IMG/VR virus record: IMGVR_UViG_2529293042_000023
Span: 1 to 5,739 of that record
Strand: one strand, 5' to 3'
DNA length: 5,739 bases
From: a virus
Taxonomy: Duplodnaviria > Heunggongvirae > Uroviricota > Caudoviricetes
The translations under genes and the position numbers were made by a program. Below the pieces are notes generated by a model. That model saw nothing but the letters and a program-made list of their open reading frames with translations. It did no database searches and was not told the DNA's origin. This document shows, in pieces, positions 1 through 5,739 of the stretch. The stretch's first letter is position 1. Each line of letters opens with the position of its first letter.

Positions 1-3000
1 CCACCGCCGGAATAACAATCTGCCGGTCAAACGGCTGATCGTCATAAACCCTGACGGTAATGGTCCCTGATGGCCACCGTTCCGGTGCACGGGAGTCCCG
101 GGGGAAAGCTTTGCCCACTGTTTTAACGAGATCGCCTTCAATCTGGTTCGCGGACAGTTTTCCCAGAACCCGACAGTTCTCGTTAATCGTGACGTTGTTG
201 AGCGTCCCGGAGTTCGCATTCACACTGCCACTGATATCCGCATTTTTAGCGGTCAGCTTTCCGTCTGATGTCAGGGAAAATGCCGGAGGATTGCCGCCAC
301 TGGTAATGGTGGGAGCCGTCAGATATTTCAGGAACACTTCATTCATGAATATCTGATCGCCCTGACCAACAAACATCGGCTTTGTGTTGCCATTCGCAGG
401 ATTAATCATCGCAATCCTGTCTGCTGCCAGCAGCACCTGACTCTGCATGCCGTCAGAGGTGTTCTCAATACCGGCACCGATACCCGCAATATAAAGGCGT
501 CCGTCCTGCATCTGCTGCAGCTTCACTGCCCACATGCTGTTCAGGTTATTATTTGTATCAACCTGAACCTTCTGTATCTGCTGGATCGCTGCACTCTGGT
601 CTTCCAGTTTCTTATTGACGGTCTGTGTTATTTCATTGCTGACATCCGTTATGGACGTCCTGATTTCAGTCAGGTCAGGCGCAAGCTGACCGTTATCAAT
701 CTGCGTCCACAGCTCCTGAGCCAGATGGGTTTTCCCTATCTCGCCTTTGAAAAAATCCAGATAGCCTGATGCATCATCACTCGGCTGACCGACAGCCTCT
801 ACAAATGCCGATTTGCCAACGGTGTTCACACTGCGGATATAAAAGTAATAATCATGGCCCGGTTTGATATTGATACTGGCAGCTATCCAGTACAGCGCCG
901 TGCCAAGATAGCGGGCTGTGGTTTCAACCTGCCTGATATCAGCAATCCGCTTTTCCGAGAACCAGAACTCAAACTGTACCGTCGGATCATAAACCGCAAG
1001 ATGCGGCGTGGCGGTTATCTGAAAATAGCCCGGTGTCAGCTCAATCCGAGACGGCGCTGCCGGTGCGGCAATCCGGAACGATACCGATGCCGGATCGCCC
1101 TGCTGTCCCCACGCATTTACCGCCCGGACTGTCAACCTGTAGTTCCCCGGCGCCAGTTGCGTGAAGCGGTATGTGGTTTCTGTCGTCCTGGCCGTGCTGA
1201 CCAGCCGCTCACTGCCGTCATCCGCTGCCACGGTCAGGCGAAGCAGGAAGCTCACGCCCTTCACCACCTTCGGCGTGTCCCAGCGCGCCAGCACCTGATA
1301 TTCCCCGCTGTCTGCGGTGACTTCGGCGGTCAGGTGCTGCACCGCTGGCGGCGTGACACCATTCACCGTGCCGCTCTGGTCGCCGTCAAAGTGCGCCCCG
1401 TTATCCACGATGGCTTCTTTTTCCGGCACGTGCTGCACCGCCGTGATGGCAAAGGTGCCGTCCGTGTTTTCCCGGATGGAGACACAGCGGAACAGGCGAC
1501 GACGCAGTGACGGCAGGGAGAGTCCCCATACACCGTATGTCTCCACACCATCAGGCAGGGTGCTGACCTGTATCCGGTCCGGCGCGGGGTGTGCAGTGAT
1601 GGCCACGCTCACCGGCTTACCGCTGCCGTTAATCAGGTTCACCGTGGCGGCACCTGTCTCCGGCAGGGTCACCTCACGGTCCAGTGTCAGGGTGCGGCTG
1701 GCGGCATCGATGGACAGGATACGTCCGCCGGTCATGGTCCCGGCATAGTCGTTATCACAGATTTCAATAATGTCACCGGGTGTGTGACGCAGCCCCTGTG
1801 ACCCGAGCGTGAAATCCACCGTCTGCGTTTCCAGCAGTCCGGTCTTTATCACCCACAGCCCGGCACGGTGGGCCTGACCGCGACTGGTGCAGCCGAACGC
1901 ATCCATCTTCAGCAGGTTGCGTCCGTAGCGCAGTATGGCTTCCGGGTCTTCCACCAGTTCCGTGGAGGTCTGCCAGCCGTTCTGCGGGTCGGTGTAATTC
2001 ACCTCCACCGCCGTGTGGCGGTCCTTCAGGGCGCTGAAGCTGTAGCGAAACCCCACGCCGTTATCATCCACCACCACATCACTGCTGGTGTAGGGCCACA
2101 CCACATCTGACGGACGGTCCTGCACGAACGTCAGCGTCTGGCCGTTCCATACCGGCATACAGCGCATCGCCGAGCAGAAATCACTGAGAACGTCCCACGC
2201 CTTACGCTGTTGTGACAGGTACGCATTAAAGGTCATCCGCGGCTCTGTGCCCCCGAAACCATCCGGGACCGTCTGGTCGCAGTACTGCGCAATGGCATAC
2301 AGCGCCCACTTGTCCACATCCGCCGCCCCCAGGCGTTTTCCCATGCCGTAGCGCGGGTGAGTCAGCATGTCCCACAGGCACCAGGCCGGGTTGTTGCTGT
2401 ATGCCGGTTTCAGGCTGCCGTCCCAGATGCCGCTGTACGTGCGTTTTTCCGGGTCATAGTTTGACGGCACCTGGATGATGCGACCGCGGATATGGTAGTT
2501 CACCGTCATCTGCTGACCGCCAAACTGCTCCGCATCCACCTGCAGCCCCACAATCGCCGTGTTCGGGTAGCACTGTTTCACATCGATGATTTCGGTGTAT
2601 GACGACCAGAGCGTCTTATTCTGCAGCTGGTCCGTGGTGCTGTCCGCCGTCTCCCTGACCATCCGGATGTTAAAGGGCCGGGGCGGCAGATTATCCAGAA
2701 TCACCGACGCCAGGAACTGCGAGGTGGTCTTGCCGTTAATGGTGACATCCTTTTCCGTCACCCAGTTACCGTTACGCTGCAACTGAATCAGCAGTCGGAC
2801 AGAAGAGTGATTACGGTCGCCCTTTGAGGTGGTCTCCAACAGTGACTGCACCCCGAAGGTGACCCGCAGGCGGTCAATGTTCGCGGACGTAATGGTGCGC
2901 GTCACCGGCTTTGCCTTCGTCACTTCCACGCCCAGTCCGGTTTCAGCTCCGGAGGACTCAAAGCCTTCCGGTGGTGTCTGCTCCTGCTCCCCGGCACGCC

Positions 3001-3202
3001 AGACCGCGGTCACACCGTGTATCACGGGATTGCCGTCCGTGTCCGTCAGTGGGGTTTTGTTCACCAGAATACTCTGCAGTCCCTTCACCGGACCTTCTAT
3101 CGGTCCCTCACCAATCGCATCAATCACACTCATCATCTGCGTGGATTTGAGATTATCCTTCGCCTCACGAGGCGTGTGTGCCTTACCGCCACCTTTTCCC
3201 AT
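1..3202 (-). CDS. J: Tail tip / host-specificity protein J (central tail fibre), N-terminal ~1067 codons; 5'-partial in window coordinates, as the C-terminal receptor-binding part lies beyond position 1
   Basis: Minus-strand translation from ATG at 3202..3200 gives [27 protein letters not shown], recognisable as the lambda gpJ N-terminus. Spot translations further in give [19 protein letters not shown] (around 2038..1982), [19 protein letters not shown] (around 1018..962), [19 protein letters not shown] (around 538..482) and [19 protein letters not shown] (58..2), all in the same frame and all recognisable J segments. GGGGAAGG lies 4-5 nt upstream of the ATG as a ribosome-binding site. Absent from the ORF track only because no stop codon lies in the window. 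I did not scan all ~1067 codons for internal stops. Confidence 0.93.
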
Positions 3203-3305
3203 ACAGCCTTCCCCTGAATAAATTAACCGCCACTTGCCATTCCGTACAGAAGTCGGATATCCTTCGCCCGAAAAGCATGAAACACATTTCTGCCATGCTA
3301 AAGAG

Positions 3306-3340
3306 AAACCCCGGTATCAGCAGATACCGGGGTTTTCTTT
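3306..3340. terminator. Strong GC-rich hairpin with U-tracts on both strands (bidirectional intrinsic terminator or attenuator) in the J 5' leader
   Basis: Perfect inverted repeat AAACCCCGGTATC (3306..3318) / GATACCGGGGTTT (3323..3335) with 4-nt loop AGCA. On the plus strand the stem is followed by TTTTCTTT; on the minus strand the same stem is followed by TTTCTCTTT. Confidence 0.55.
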
Positions 3341-3399
3341 CATGCCCACCGATAATCCTGTTGGTTAAAACCGGTAATGGCATAAAAATTCTGAATATC

Positions 3400-3435
3400 T
3401 TCACATTTTCACACACTGACTGTGGCGCTTATAAT
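3400..3435 (+). promoter_or_regulatory. Near-consensus sigma70 promoter on the plus strand (antisense orientation relative to the tail genes)
   Basis: -35 TTCACA at 3408..3413 (5/6 match to TTGACA; a second TTCACA copy at 3400..3405), 16-bp spacer, perfect -10 TATAAT at 3430..3435. A/T-rich UP-like tract upstream (GGCATAAAAATTCTGAATATC, about 3379..3399). Predicted transcription start around 3442. Confidence 0.5.
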
Positions 3436-3441
3436 TTCGCT

Positions 3442-3539
3442 GCGTTAGTGTTTTTTTGCCCGAGTAACAAAAACAACTCCTTAACATTGATCTTCATTTG
3501 TCTGTCCCCGCAGCTCCGCGATCACTGCGGGATTTTTTT
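3442..3539 (+). ncRNA. Candidate ~100-nt small RNA encoded in the I-J intergenic spacer (promoter plus intrinsic terminator, no credible ORF); possible target-mimic or sponge sRNA
   Basis: Bounded by the TTCACA-16-TATAAT promoter and the terminator hairpin at 3507..3539. No ATG start codon lies within the predicted transcript on this strand. Contains a C/A-rich stretch GUAACAAAAACAACUCC (3464..3480) upstream of the terminator stem and ends in a U-rich tail typical of Hfq-dependent sRNAs. Boundaries are approximate. Confidence 0.4.
3507..3539 (+). terminator. Rho-independent terminator, plus strand, ending the candidate sRNA just before it would run antisense into gene I
   Basis: Stem CCCGCAG (3507..3513) / CTGCGGG (3525..3531), 11-nt loop, followed by a run of seven T (3533..3539). 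On the minus strand the stem is not followed by a U-tract, so it is unidirectional. Confidence 0.55.
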
Positions 3540-3544
3540 ATGTT

Positions 3545-4225
3545 TTATCCCTGTCGCCCGACAACCACGACCGTTCCGCCCCCGCCTTCATCACGGGTGC
3601 TGATGTCCTGGGATATACGGCGGGAGCCAACCAGCATTTCCCCGTAAGGCACCGGCATCGGGTTCCCCTGGGCAATCATGTTATCCAGCGAGGAAAAGTA
3701 CGTGTTCTGTCTGCCGTTATCCGTTGCGCGGTAATCCGGTGTTTTTGCCTTCGGGGCCAGCATCTGGGCCACACCGCCCAGAATCATGCTGGCTCCAAGT
3801 GAAAACAGCATCGTGGTGGCAGAAAAACCACCGGCTGCCAGGGCTGAACCCCATAACGCCATTGATGCCCCGGCAGTGAAGAAAGAGCCCACGATGGCTG
3901 CCGCCCCCAGCACAATCTGCAGTCCACCCTTTCCGGCCCCGGCCAGTCGCGGCACAATATGGATGACCGTTCCCTCACCCAGCTGTTCGTGAAGACGGGC
4001 GTACACCGCCTCCGGTGCCGTGTCATCACCGGCAATACGTATCTGGTACCAGCCTTCGTTCATCTGACGGCGGAATCCCGGCACCTGTAACGACAGCGCC
4101 CGGATGGCTTCCGCTGCCGTGTTCACATACAGGCTGAGGCGGCGGCCAAATCGTTGTAAATCCCCGTGAAGGCAGATGCGTGCCAGTGGCGGTGACGCCA
4201 GGCTGAATGCGTTCGTCGTTGCCAT
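3545..4225 (-). CDS. I: Tail assembly protein I (lambda gpI family): N-terminal ubiquitin-like domain and C-terminal Gly/Ala-rich hydrophobic region
   Basis: 226-aa ORF in the track (MATTNAFSLASPPLARICLHGDLQRFGRR...TVVVVGRQG), recognisable as the gpI family. Start ATG at 4225..4223 lies inside K in another frame, giving a 103-nt K/I overlap as I recall for lambda. Stop TAA at 3547..3545. Confidence 0.93.
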   Translation of the reverse strand: MATTNAFSLASPPLARICLHGDLQRFGRRLSLYVNTAAEAIRALSLQVPGFRRQMNEGWYQIRIAGDDTAPEAVYARLHEQLGEGTVIHIVPRLAGAGKGGLQIVLGAAAIVGSFFTAGASMALWGSALAAGGFSATTMLFSLGASMILGGVAQMLAPKAKTPDYRATDNGRQNTYFSSLDNMIAQGNPMPVPYGEMLVGSRRISQDISTRDEGGGGTVVVVGRQG

Positions 4226-4866
4226 TTTTCGGAATACCTCTCCCGTTTACTCAGTTGTTCAGGCAGATGGTGAAGCAGCTCACCGTTGCCGCAGTATATG
4301 GCGGCATGATTGGCCACCGATGCGCCAAAGCAGCACAGCAGGATATCGCCAGGCTGTGCGGAAGGCAGGGAAATCCTGTAAAAACCAGTCGCCTCCATAT
4401 TGTCCAGGTACAGGTTCTGACCATTGCGCCACCAGTCATCCTCACGCTCAAAATCCGGCATATCAATTCCCGCCAGATGGTAAGCATCCCGGAACAGCGT
4501 GTAACAGTCCGTCACCCCGTGCTCAAAGCGCCGTCCTGTCAGATGTGGCACACAGCGGAATTTATGAATGTCACCCCGGCAGACCAGCCACCAGGACAGT
4601 GCACTTTTTATCTGCAGCCGCCGGTCGGCCTCGCTCAGCCAGGGCAGACCACCGGGATGACTGTGGACCAGTGCCACAATCTCCCCCTGCATCTCTGCCC
4701 GCAGCCAGTCTTCCGGTGCAATACGAAAATACGCCTCCGGCTCTGCAGAGATATTCACACAAGGGATATACCGCTCCCCCTCCGGCGTTCTCACCACGAA
4801 GCCGCACGACTCCGCAGGCGCACACCGCCGGGCATGCGCCAGAATCGCTGATTCAGTCTGTGTCAT
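4123..4866 (-). CDS. K: Tail assembly protein K (lambda gpK family): N-terminal JAMM/MPN metalloprotease-like domain plus C-terminal NlpC/P60 (C40) peptidase domain
   Basis: Minus-strand ORF from ATG 4866..4864 (MTQTESAILAHARR...) to stop TGA 4125..4123, 247 aa. JAMM motif HSHPGGLPWLSEAD (H-x-H-x7-S-x2-D) at residues 68-81 with a candidate upstream Glu at residue 19. NlpC/P60-like Cys in DCYTLFRDAYHLAG (residue 121) and downstream His residues. The track's 334-aa version (from 5127) is an out-of-frame N-terminal extension running through the 3' end of L and is rejected. Confidence 0.88.
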   Translation of the reverse strand: MTQTESAILAHARRCAPAESCGFVVRTPEGERYIPCVNISAEPEAYFRIAPEDWLRAEMQGEIVALVHSHPGGLPWLSEADRRLQIKSALSWWLVCRGDIHKFRCVPHLTGRRFEHGVTDCYTLFRDAYHLAGIDMPDFEREDDWWRNGQNLYLDNMEATGFYRISLPSAQPGDILLCCFGASVANHAAIYCGNGELLHHLPEQLSKRERYSEKWQRRTHSAWRHRHWHASAFTGIYNDLAAASACM

Positions 4867-4876
4867 AAACCGGGAT

Positions 4877-5575
4877 TTACTGCGAAAGTTTATTAATGGA
4901 AAGGAAACCGCCAAAATTAGCCACCATGCCGCGCATCTCACACCCGCGCATGCACTTGCTGCATCTGTCCTTACGGATATCCGTGGTGGGGTTGTCGAAC
5001 TCATCCGCCACAGCCCCGCCCGTGTAACCACACTCATCAGAGCGGTAGGTCCACATACAGGTATTCGCCAGCATGATGCGACCGGGAAACAGCGCTCCGT
5101 CCGTCTCGGTCGGTGTAGCCAGCACAAACGAGGCCGTCATGGCTGTCAGCTGCGACATCTGCTCCACCACCCAGCGGTCACTCAGCTCCTGCTCCGGGTC
5201 CGCCTCCGGATTGCCCGCAACGAAATTCACCGCATCCAGAAAACGGGCATACACCCGGCGGCGGACCACCGTGGCCCCCACCAGACTCTGCAGGTCCTCC
5301 GCCATCCCGGTGACAAGGCCAAACAGATTGGACACCGTCAGTGACGGGCGGGCACTGCTGCCCTTCCCGTTCATCTCAAAACCGCTGCCGTCAATCGGGT
5401 ATGCCTGATATTGCCGCCCCTGCCAGGTGACCGCCTCCCCTTTTTCATTCAGCTCATTACAGAAAAAATACCGCTCACCACCCTGCACCGTCAGGTCGAT
5501 TTCCCAGAGTACCACCCGCGGTGACTGCTCTGATTTAACCGACTCGTTCAGACTTTCTTCATGAATGTCCTGCAT
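4877..5575 (-). CDS. L: Minor tail protein L (lambda gpL family, tail tip complex; C-terminal cysteine cluster)
   Basis: 232-aa ORF in the track (MQDIHEESLNE...GGFLSINKLSQ), same length and clearly recognisable as lambda gpL. Start ATG 5575..5573 overlaps the M stop codon (ATGA arrangement). Stop TAA at 4879..4877. Confidence 0.95.
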   Translation of the reverse strand: MQDIHEESLNESVKSEQSPRVVLWEIDLTVQGGERYFFCNELNEKGEAVTWQGRQYQAYPIDGSGFEMNGKGSSARPSLTVSNLFGLVTGMAEDLQSLVGATVVRRRVYARFLDAVNFVAGNPEADPEQELSDRWVVEQMSQLTAMTASFVLATPTETDGALFPGRIMLANTCMWTYRSDECGYTGGAVADEFDNPTTDIRKDRCSKCMRGCEMRGMVANFGGFLSINKLSQ

Positions 5576-5739
5576 CAGTTCACCACCTGCTCAATCGTAC
5601 AACTGAAATCACTGTACCGGGCGTTATCCGTGACGCTCCACTCCCGGCACACAACCCTCACCGTCCGGTTATGTTTCGGCGGTCGCCACAAAAAGGCACG
5701 GTAACCACCATGCCAGGATAAAAACTCTTCCAGCCAGCG
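5575..5739 (-). CDS. M: Minor tail protein M (lambda gpM family), C-terminal 54 codons only; start lies beyond the window end
   Basis: Minus-strand translation from 5739 in the frame ending at TGA 5577..5575 gives RWLEEFLSWHGGYRAFLWRPPKHNRTVRVVCREWSVTDNARYSDFSCTIEQVVN*, matching the remembered lambda gpM C-terminus (...LESFLEEHGGWKSFLWTPP...EFEQVVN). Its stop overlaps the L start codon. Confidence 0.85.
   Translation of the reverse strand, partial: RWLEEFLSWHGGYRAFLWRPPKHNRTVRVVCREWSVTDNARYSDFSCTIEQVVN

Follow-up and report, generated by a model that had tools for sequence, protein, structure and literature searches.

What lies between the tail genes I and J in a lambdoid phage whose other tail genes leave hardly any room between them? 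The question is raised by the stretch of viral DNA analysed here (the window), 5,739 nucleotides of a Caudoviricetes record in IMG/VR (IMGVR_UViG_2529293042_000023, positions 1 to 5,739). A sequence-only reading of this DNA had drawn attention to a 342-bp gap between I and J, described it as AT-rich DNA with its own promoter and terminators, and proposed that it is a moron-like insertion inside the tail-tip operon. Morons of lambdoid phages (Juhala et al. 2000, cited by Tree 2014, PMC4104026) include lom and bor of lambda and, at the PR' site, stx.

In this study, the spacer was compared with phage records, complete Escherichia coli genomes and published small RNAs. It is very probably an insert of two non-coding modules within the tail-tip operon of a lambdoid (pro)phage: the small RNA unit pasB and a J-proximal segment that is a putative terminator/insulator. 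Identity, position, anatomy and distribution were determined in this analysis, expression and Hfq dependence are taken from the literature by homology, and we infer the seed, the mechanism and the role of the J-proximal segment.

Results

The I-J spacer is extra DNA in a tightly packed tail module

All genes of the window lie on the minus strand: L at 5575..4877, K at 4866..4123, I at 4225..3545 and J from 3202. L and K are 10 nt apart and K and I overlap by 103 nt, so the tight packing from which the sequence-only reading started is real. Pfam recognised Phage_tail_L in L, JAB and NlpC/P60 domains in K, Lambda_tail_I in the tail assembly gene I (ORF 3545..4225, minus strand; E=6e-16), and the GpJ domain set, with FNIII, Ig, Phage-tail_3 and tip domains, in the tail tip / host specificity gene J (2..3202, minus strand). 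The open frame of J runs for 1067 codons to the window edge, and the window holds only the 5' 3.2 kb of the gene. Its ATG is at 3202-3200 and is preceded by the Shine-Dalgarno-like sequence GGGGAAGG at 3214-3207.

Gene coordinates give an I-J intergenic spacer of 342 bp (3203..3544), as had been noted, with the stop codon of I (3545-3547) as its right border. Its GC content of 43.6% (0.396 as a fraction in the right half) compares with 60.5% in I and 57.7% in J, in agreement with the AT-richness described earlier. The I-J gap of lambda, given in that reading as about 60 bp, is exactly 60 bp (in J02459, from the end of I at 15444 to the start of J at 15505), and that of phage cdtI is also 60 bp. 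A spacer of similar length and sequence in most lambdoid phages, lambda included, had been named as the sign of an ancestral leader; lambda has no such spacer, and compared with lambda and cdtI the spacer of the window is extra DNA.

The promoter and terminators ascribed to the spacer were recovered in part: a promoter scoring 11/12 and one terminator were called, and a 13-bp inverted repeat in the J-proximal half was left uncalled by the terminator scan. The strand of these signals had gone unstated. Both the promoter and the terminator are on the plus strand, and the signals therefore oppose the tail operon.

The right half of the spacer matches the published sRNA gene pasB

On the basis of sequence identity, the right half of the spacer is the published Hfq-dependent sRNA gene pasB. 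PasB (pathogenicity-associated sRNA B) is an 83-nt RNA of the EPEC O127:H6 strain E2348/69, encoded in prophage PP6 (Pearl Mizrahi 2021, PMC8550237) on the minus strand of NC_011601 at 1466343..1466261 and detected with the northern probe AATCCCGCAGTGATCGCGGAGCT (Table S6, PMC8550237). The RNA matches window positions 3457-3539 on the plus strand in 82/83 nt, and the probe is the exact reverse complement of 3512-3534. The lone difference is a C to A change at position 27 of the RNA (window 3483). According to the accessible text of a recent preprint, PasB and its variant PasB-2 differ by one nucleotide at this same position 27 (Zhu, Shabalina and Storz 2026, 10.64898/2026.05.13.724894). The mismatch in the window fits this polymorphism, and by position alone the window allele would be assigned to PasB-2.

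The two loci also agree in layout. In E2348/69, I ends at 1466255, PasB occupies 1466261-1466343 on the minus strand and gpJ starts at 1466496, which places PasB inside the I-J spacer, in antisense orientation and 5 nt from the I stop. The window likewise has the sRNA between I and gpJ on the opposite strand, with the same 5-nt end distance. Promoter, terminator, position, strand and 82/83 nt are thus common to both, whereas between the promoter and J the window has 176 bp and E2348/69 has about 80 bp that are unrelated to it in sequence. This longer J-proximal segment accounts for a spacer of 342 bp in the window against 240 bp in E2348/69. Expression and Hfq dependence of pasB in the 342-bp form are assumed here, being carried over from the 99% identical E2348/69 gene, which has a different upstream module.

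Covariance models added nothing to this identification. A scan of the window with Rfam 15 at E<=1 matched zero families, and the I-J spacers of E2348/69 and of Sakai Sp15 and Sp14 gave no match either, with STnc100, AgvB and AsxR found at other sites only. Since Rfam 15 holds no PasB model, this null result was not counted against membership in the PasB family. Identity with the anti-sRNAs AgvB or AsxR was rejected: those genes are located at the PR' moron site and their models have no match in the window.

Anatomy of the pasB gene

The gene opens with an upstream box, ATAAAAWTTCTGAAnnTCTTCACATTT, at 3382..3408 on the plus strand, about -60 to -34 from the predicted pasB start. Apart from the degenerate W and nn, this box does not vary among 13 distinct pasB-type spacers whose identity elsewhere is 70-100%, and it may be an UP element or the site of a regulator. 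It runs into a predicted sigma-70 promoter, TTCACA-16-TATAAT, at 3408..3435 (plus strand), with a scan score of 11/12; 0.6 promoter-like sites were expected by chance in shuffled sequence. The -10 hexamer is conserved across alleles, and transcription is predicted to start near 3442, at a conserved GCGTTA. By the annotation of E2348/69, the mature RNA of 83 nt corresponds to 3457..3539 (plus strand). A start at about 3442 would give 98 nt instead of 83 nt, which implies either processing or an imprecise 5' end.

The RNA contains an A/C-rich tract (3466-3477), an anti-Shine-Dalgarno-like CTCCTT (3477-3482) and a conserved ATCTTC (3490-3495). It ends in an intrinsic terminator at 3507..3539 on the plus strand (called by the scan as 3515..3531 plus T7), with a 7-bp stem CCCGCAG / CTGCGGG at 3507-3513 / 3525-3531 and a T7 run at 3533-3539 that stops 5 nt short of the I stop codon. 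This terminator is likely to be the Hfq-binding 3' end. Its stem is constant in 10/10 diverse PasB alleles, and RNAalifold on these 10 alleles predicted the terminator stem alone and found no compensatory pairs; there is no covariation because the stem is invariant. Structure beyond the terminator was considered and set aside, as the covariation analysis of the 10 alleles gave it no support. Over the 13 alleles, the conserved elements are the box, the -10 hexamer, GCGTTA, a U-run, the A/C-rich tract, CTCCTT, ATCTTC and the CCCGCAG/CTGCGGG stem with its U-tract. The promoter box and the terminator are constant, and the RNA body is variable.

Published properties of PasB

In E2348/69, the resident prophage expresses PasB without being induced to lytic growth, the northern band of PasB agrees with the size seen in RNA-seq, and the stability of the RNA depends on Hfq, with RNA-seq log2 fold changes of -6.8 and -2.4 in an hfq deletion (PMC8550237). 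It is more abundant in non-activating conditions (PMC8550237). The RIL-seq summary statistics of the same study count 258 PasB fragments under activating and 1820 under non-activating conditions, and show it to be the second RNA of the chimera in 99-100% of cases (PMC8550237). They give 37 partners, 30 of them CDS or 5'UTR and 0 sRNA, nearly all from the core genome, with an accessory-genome fraction of 0.5-2%. As no sRNA is counted among the 37 partners in these statistics, PasB is apparently not an anti-sRNA. The accessible text of the 2026 preprint reports 1,158 PasB hits, states that PasB is often the sole Pas gene in non-EPEC/EHEC strains, and suggests that the seed lies immediately before the terminator (10.64898/2026.05.13.724894).

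EcOnc22, EcOnc23 and EcOnc24 map to the same locus

EcOnc22, EcOnc23 and EcOnc24 of O157:H7 Sakai were described as Hfq CRAC peaks and listed as mutual homologues (Tree 2014 Table S2, PMC4104026). EcOnc22, in Sp15 at 2902714-2902774 (plus strand), gave a northern band of about 85 nt and was destabilised in an hfq deletion; EcOnc23 is in Sp14 and EcOnc24 in Sp11 (PMC4104026). A 2021 review enters the function of all three as unknown. In NC_002695.2 the I-J spacers of these prophages are at 2902691-2902930 (Sp15), 2676622-2676861 (Sp14) and 2166672-2166911 (Sp11), with the tail genes on the minus strand. The published EcOnc coordinates belong to an older genome version, and the shift was therefore calibrated on AgvB. 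AgvB1, published at 1941783-1941835, is matched by its Rfam model at 1941920-1941981 of the current record, which puts the shift at +137 to +146. This range is contained in each of the ranges that place the EcOnc22, EcOnc23 and EcOnc24 peaks inside pasB-like genes (130-152, 132-153 and 131-154). All three peaks fall within the I-J spacers, on the antisense strand.

The peak positions and the calibrated shift lead us to regard EcOnc22-24 as probable PasB homologues. They resemble pasB of the window in their I-J location, antisense orientation, promoter box, ATCTTC motif and CCCGCAG/CTGCGGG terminator, but share only about 74% identity with it over the pasB unit and have a different 5' body. Judged from sequence and position, EcOnc22-24 of EHEC and PasB of EPEC apparently form a single family that occupies one conserved locus. 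This equivalence is stated in neither the PasB nor the EcOnc publication (Tree 2014).

Distribution and classes of I-J spacers

The 342-bp spacer was searched against phage records and 5426 complete E. coli genomes. It matched 147 phage records, 13 of them over the full length at 100% identity, including PPompW prophages, phage ASU11 and vB_EcoS-569R3. The other 134 records matched only at query positions 177-342, the pasB unit; 127 of these were at 60-80% identity, and those among the matches listed were at about 74-78%. Some match was present in 1813/5426 complete E. coli genomes and a match over at least 80% of the 342 bp in 1445/5426. Genomes with the 342-bp type include ST131, CFT073, APEC BEN2908, O157:H7, O26 and O145.

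Spacers extracted from annotated records fall into three classes. Lambda and cdtI have a 60-bp spacer with no pasB. A spacer of 239-254 bp with pasB and a short J-proximal segment is found in E2348/69, VT1-Sakai/Sp15, Sp14, Sp11, JLK-2012, BP-4795, PhiR5_1, PhiR12_1, PhiR12_2* and 1720a-02, and is standard in Stx and other lambdoid phages. The window, CFT073 and BEN2908 have pasB with a long J-proximal segment, 342-343 bp in all. The wide occurrence in phages and E. coli indicates that the pasB locus is old and stably placed in this lineage rather than a recent insertion.

Two modules reassort at the promoter box

Between the 342-bp and the 240-bp class, homology starts at about 3381, at the constant box, and continues through pasB to the I stop. 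Left of the box, the window has 176 bp and the 240-bp class has 75-90 bp of unrelated sequence; identity to E2348/69 over the J-proximal stretch is 17-36%. A comparison with CFT073 gives the complementary picture. The window is 100% identical to CFT073 from J through 3402, 76% identical across 3403-3502 (the pasB body), and 91-100% identical in the coding flanks; the flanks that enclose the pasB body are 97-100% identical. Long and short J-proximal segments occur with both pasB alleles: long with allele 1 in the window, long with allele 2 in CFT073, short with allele 1 in E2348/69 and PhiR12_2*, and short with allele 2 in PhiR5_1 and JLK-2012. These four combinations indicate that the J-proximal segment and the pasB cassette reassort independently, and the constant promoter box is the likely recombination joint between them. 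The concentration of divergence in the sRNA body suggests that it is exchanged like a cassette or that target specificity is under diversifying selection. Alignment of the I-J junction with lambdoid records, which the sequence-only reading had expected to outline the inserted segment, did reveal extra DNA relative to lambda and cdtI, but in the form of two independently assorting modules and not of one insertion.

The J-proximal module

The long form of the J-proximal module (3203..3378) is a non-coding, nearly invariant segment of 176 bp. It is at least 99% identical in 1442/1451 matching records (from 1446/5426 complete E. coli genomes), and searches of E. coli genomes, phages and plasmids at blastn sensitivity found no diverged homologues. 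In a scan of viral contigs, the 13-bp hairpin described below occurred at 113 loci and the full J-proximal segment in 106 contigs, and the module adjoins J in the distinct variants aligned. Two contigs (L029 and L083) have unrelated sequence to the right of the module; these junctions are probably rearrangement breakpoints.

The most prominent feature of the module is a perfect 13-bp inverted repeat, AAACCCCGGTATC / GATACCGGGGTTT, with a loop of 4 (3306-3318/3323-3335). The G/C-rich core of the repeat is followed by the U-rich runs UUUUCUUUC on the plus strand and UUUCUCUUU on the minus strand, and the fold z-score of the region is -6.25 (plus) and -3.4 (minus). As modelled from its fold, the hairpin most likely serves to terminate transcription in both directions or to insulate J; the simple terminator scan of the window left it uncalled, and its status as a terminator is accordingly inferred. 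A small second hairpin, GCATG...CATGC, appears at 3275..3298 in the minimum-free-energy fold of the minus strand, and UUUUCGGG comes directly after it on the operon-sense strand. In lambda and the 240-bp spacers, too, the operon-sense strand has a hairpin with a U-run behind it, shortly before the ribosome-binding site of J. Lambdoid phages may for this reason generally have a terminator or insulator at the I-J junction that can be read through, of which the window would contain a longer, bidirectional version.

Discussion

The spacer feature that stood out in the raw sequence is already known, as PasB (2021 and 2026) and as EcOnc22-24 (2014). We propose that pasB (3382-3539, plus strand) is a self-contained unit that would be transcribed from its own sigma-70 promoter, convergently with gene I, up to its intrinsic terminator. 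The product would be an RNA of about 83-98 nt, largely unstructured except for the terminator, expressed from the resident prophage and bound by Hfq at its 3' end. With the help of Hfq, PasB may pair in trans with host mRNAs at ribosome-binding regions. The complementarity of the motif CUCCUU to Shine-Dalgarno sequences suggests that ribosome-binding sites are occluded, and CUCCUU and AUCUUC are the putative seed motifs. In this way pasB would act as an RNA moron, a cargo through which the phage rewires the gene expression of its lysogenic host. The J-proximal hairpin would insulate the pasB unit from J by terminating transcription both ways, and Q-antiterminated late transcription would pass through it.

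It is also conceivable that PasB works mainly in cis, pairing with the late I-J mRNA during lytic growth and altering J expression or mRNA processing, with the late mRNA titrating PasB and trans targets being secondary. The gene lies wholly within the I-J intergenic region on the antisense strand and is fully complementary to the late mRNA there; its exact position is kept in every phage and prophage examined; and a stable position with a variable RNA body is tolerable for a cis-antisense RNA, whose complementarity is automatic. However, the RIL-seq summary statistics name 30 CDS or 5'UTR partners that are almost all core genome (accessory fraction, 0.5-2%; PMC8550237), the RNA is present in lysogens that have not been induced and whose late operon is silent, and the conservation of the short motifs CTCCTT and ATCTTC across alleles suggests selection for trans pairing. 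A mainly cis role is accordingly unlikely. A similarly low probability is given to a second sRNA encoded in the J-proximal module (3203-3378), either a plus-strand RNA of about 70 nt from a promoter at 3234-3263 to the hairpin at 3306-3335, or an operon-sense RNA derived from the I 3'UTR with the same hairpin end. A promoter-like site (9/12) at 3234..3263 on the plus strand is indeed followed by the strong hairpin and UUUUCUUUC, the fold z-score is -6.25, and the module is at least 99% conserved in 1442/1451 records across unrelated E. coli lineages. This promoter is weak, though, with about 0.4 such sites expected by chance in that stretch; Rfam gave no match at E<=1, a published Hfq peak or sRNA at 3203-3378 was not found in the literature, and the conservation may merely follow from linkage to the well-conserved 5' end of J. 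We therefore doubt that a second sRNA is made here, and favour pasB next to a terminator or insulator.

Two further explanations deny the spacer an RNA gene altogether. It could be a small protein-coding moron, for example through the minus-strand ORF of 66-77 aa at 3183-3416, which is annotated as a 'hypothetical protein' (ASU11_gp9c) in one phage record (ASU11); in PhiR12_1 and 1720a-02 the spacers likewise have small ORFs annotated as hypothetical. The ORFs of these two phages, however, are elsewhere in the spacer, antisense to pasB and non-homologous. The ORF at 3183-3416 crosses the 13-bp hairpin, has no Shine-Dalgarno sequence ahead of it and overlaps the start of J in another frame; Pfam and PHROG gave no match at E<=0.1, and RefSeq PGAP annotation is absent at the spacer among the E. 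coli genome matches listed. A protein-coding moron is for these reasons highly improbable. Even less credit is due to the view that the spacer is an ancestral leader or UTR of J with no autonomous function, whose promoter and terminator arose by chance. AT-rich DNA does yield promoter-like hexamers by chance, and some hairpin upstream of J is present at every lambdoid I-J junction examined, but lambda and cdtI need just 60 bp, and northern, RNA-seq and RIL-seq have all detected the RNA, as has Hfq CRAC under the name EcOnc22. With PasB detected in published work, this view is already contradicted. Protein-coding cargo was rejected for the spacer as a whole, as all three of its ORFs lack a Pfam or PHROG match and the ORFs cross hairpins.

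The likeness of the pasB unit to the classic morons of lambdoid phages is considerable. In both cases extra DNA of deviant base composition, with its own promoter and terminator, stands between genes that are adjacent in relatives, and is expressed in the prophage independently of the late operon. The pasB unit differs in that its cargo is a regulatory RNA and not a protein, in that it is antisense to the surrounding operon, and in its place at the I-J junction, whereas the classic sites are downstream of PR' or J. Operationally, a moron is defined as a self-contained unit of promoter and terminator. Among the marks of a moron, the spacer has extra DNA, a predicted promoter and terminator of its own, whose function the published transcript supports, and deviant GC; it has no protein-coding cargo. 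The moron-like insertion that had been proposed therefore stands as far as an autonomous promoter-terminator unit of deviant composition, not found in lambda, is concerned, and has to be amended in that the cargo is an antisense RNA and the insert is widespread and composite. The anti-sRNAs AgvB and AsxR (RF02702 and RF02703) are comparable to PasB as short Hfq-binding prophage RNAs with a variable 5' region and a conserved terminator. They differ from it in their PR' moron site and in having no sequence similarity to it (Rfam, window).

In this study, a published prophage sRNA gene was re-discovered from raw sequence. The analysis goes beyond the published papers in placing PasB and EcOnc22-24 in one family at one locus, in describing an extra invariant 176-bp module in the window-type spacer (1445/5426 E. 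coli genomes), and in locating the divergence in the sRNA body, between a constant promoter box and a constant terminator. A wider speculation, to which we assign little probability, is that the lambdoid I-J junction is a dedicated two-part RNA regulatory locus, in which PasB would also act in cis on J or be titrated, and the J-proximal module would be a second RNA element, either a terminator/insulator or an sRNA. If this were true, free reassortment at the promoter box would let prophages exchange sRNA 'seed cassettes' with one another. Where the genes of a late operon are otherwise tightly packed, an oversized, AT-rich gap can serve as a signature for RNA morons.

Results and Discussion

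In all I-J junctions examined, namely those of lambda and cdtI (60 bp each) and of the 240-bp and 342-bp classes, the operon-sense strand carries a hairpin with a U-run after it, just ahead of the J ribosome-binding site. This element lies at approximately 590-640 of the lambda locus (L004; AAACCGCCTGCGGGCGGTTTTGTCATTT), at 3298-3335 on the minus strand of the window, and on the operon-sense strand of the spacers of loci L001 and L005-L010. The hairpin sequences are unrelated among lambda, the 240-bp class and the long module of the window. The element looks like a terminator or insulator, located within the late operon and conserved in position. Several phage records annotate small 'hypothetical protein' CDSs within the I-J spacers, as in ASU11 (L002, 2981-3181), PhiR12_1 (L008, 723-821) and 1720a-02 (L010, 751-903); these CDSs, which probably represent over-annotation, either overlap the hairpin or run antisense to pasB.

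Two IMG/VR contigs retain the left module and then switch to sequence without relation to pasB, from approximately window position 3354 in L029 and 3414 in L083. The switch points are probably deletion or rearrangement breakpoints inside the spacer.

The pasB-like copies of O157 Sakai prophages Sp15, Sp14 and Sp11 are mutually identical across 151 nt. Coordinates of the Hfq-bound RNAs EcOnc22, EcOnc23 and EcOnc24 (Tree et al. 2014) were compared with Sakai loci L018, L019, L135 and L020 of the current RefSeq record, NC_002695.2. The published positions are offset from this record by approximately +137 to +146 nt, at least over 1.94-2.90 Mb, and once shifted by this amount the three RNAs coincide with pasB-like genes. 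Strong matches to STnc100 (RF02076) were also observed in Sakai at L021 1038-1247 and L020 428-620 (Sp15 and Sp10), where they adjoin stx1B and AgvB. These positions agree with a preprint that notes STnc100-like RNAs alongside the PR' moron site (Zhu, Shabalina and Storz 2026, 10.64898/2026.05.13.724894); the matches bear no relation to the I-J locus.

Over window positions 1-900, the covered stretch of J closest to the 3' end of the gene, GC content falls to 0.48-0.55, against approximately 0.62 in mid-J, and below approximately 1400 the identity of the window to EPEC E2348/69 drops to 62%. Both features fit an exchange of the receptor-binding end of J.

Upstream of the pasB -35 element, the window carries a 27-nt box at 3382-3408 (ATAAAAWTTCTGAAnnTCTTCACATTT), which includes a TGAA-N4-TTCA dyad at 3392-3403. 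Among the 13 pasB alleles compared, this box shows stronger conservation than either the promoter spacer or the RNA body. It is a candidate UP element or binding site for a regulator. The tail regions of the window and the CFT073 prophage (L012) are otherwise near-identical, and their divergence clusters within the transcribed pasB body: window 3403-3502 shares 76% identity with L012 1400-1500, whereas the flanks share 97-100%. This concentration suggests that the sRNA has undergone allele replacement or diversifying selection.
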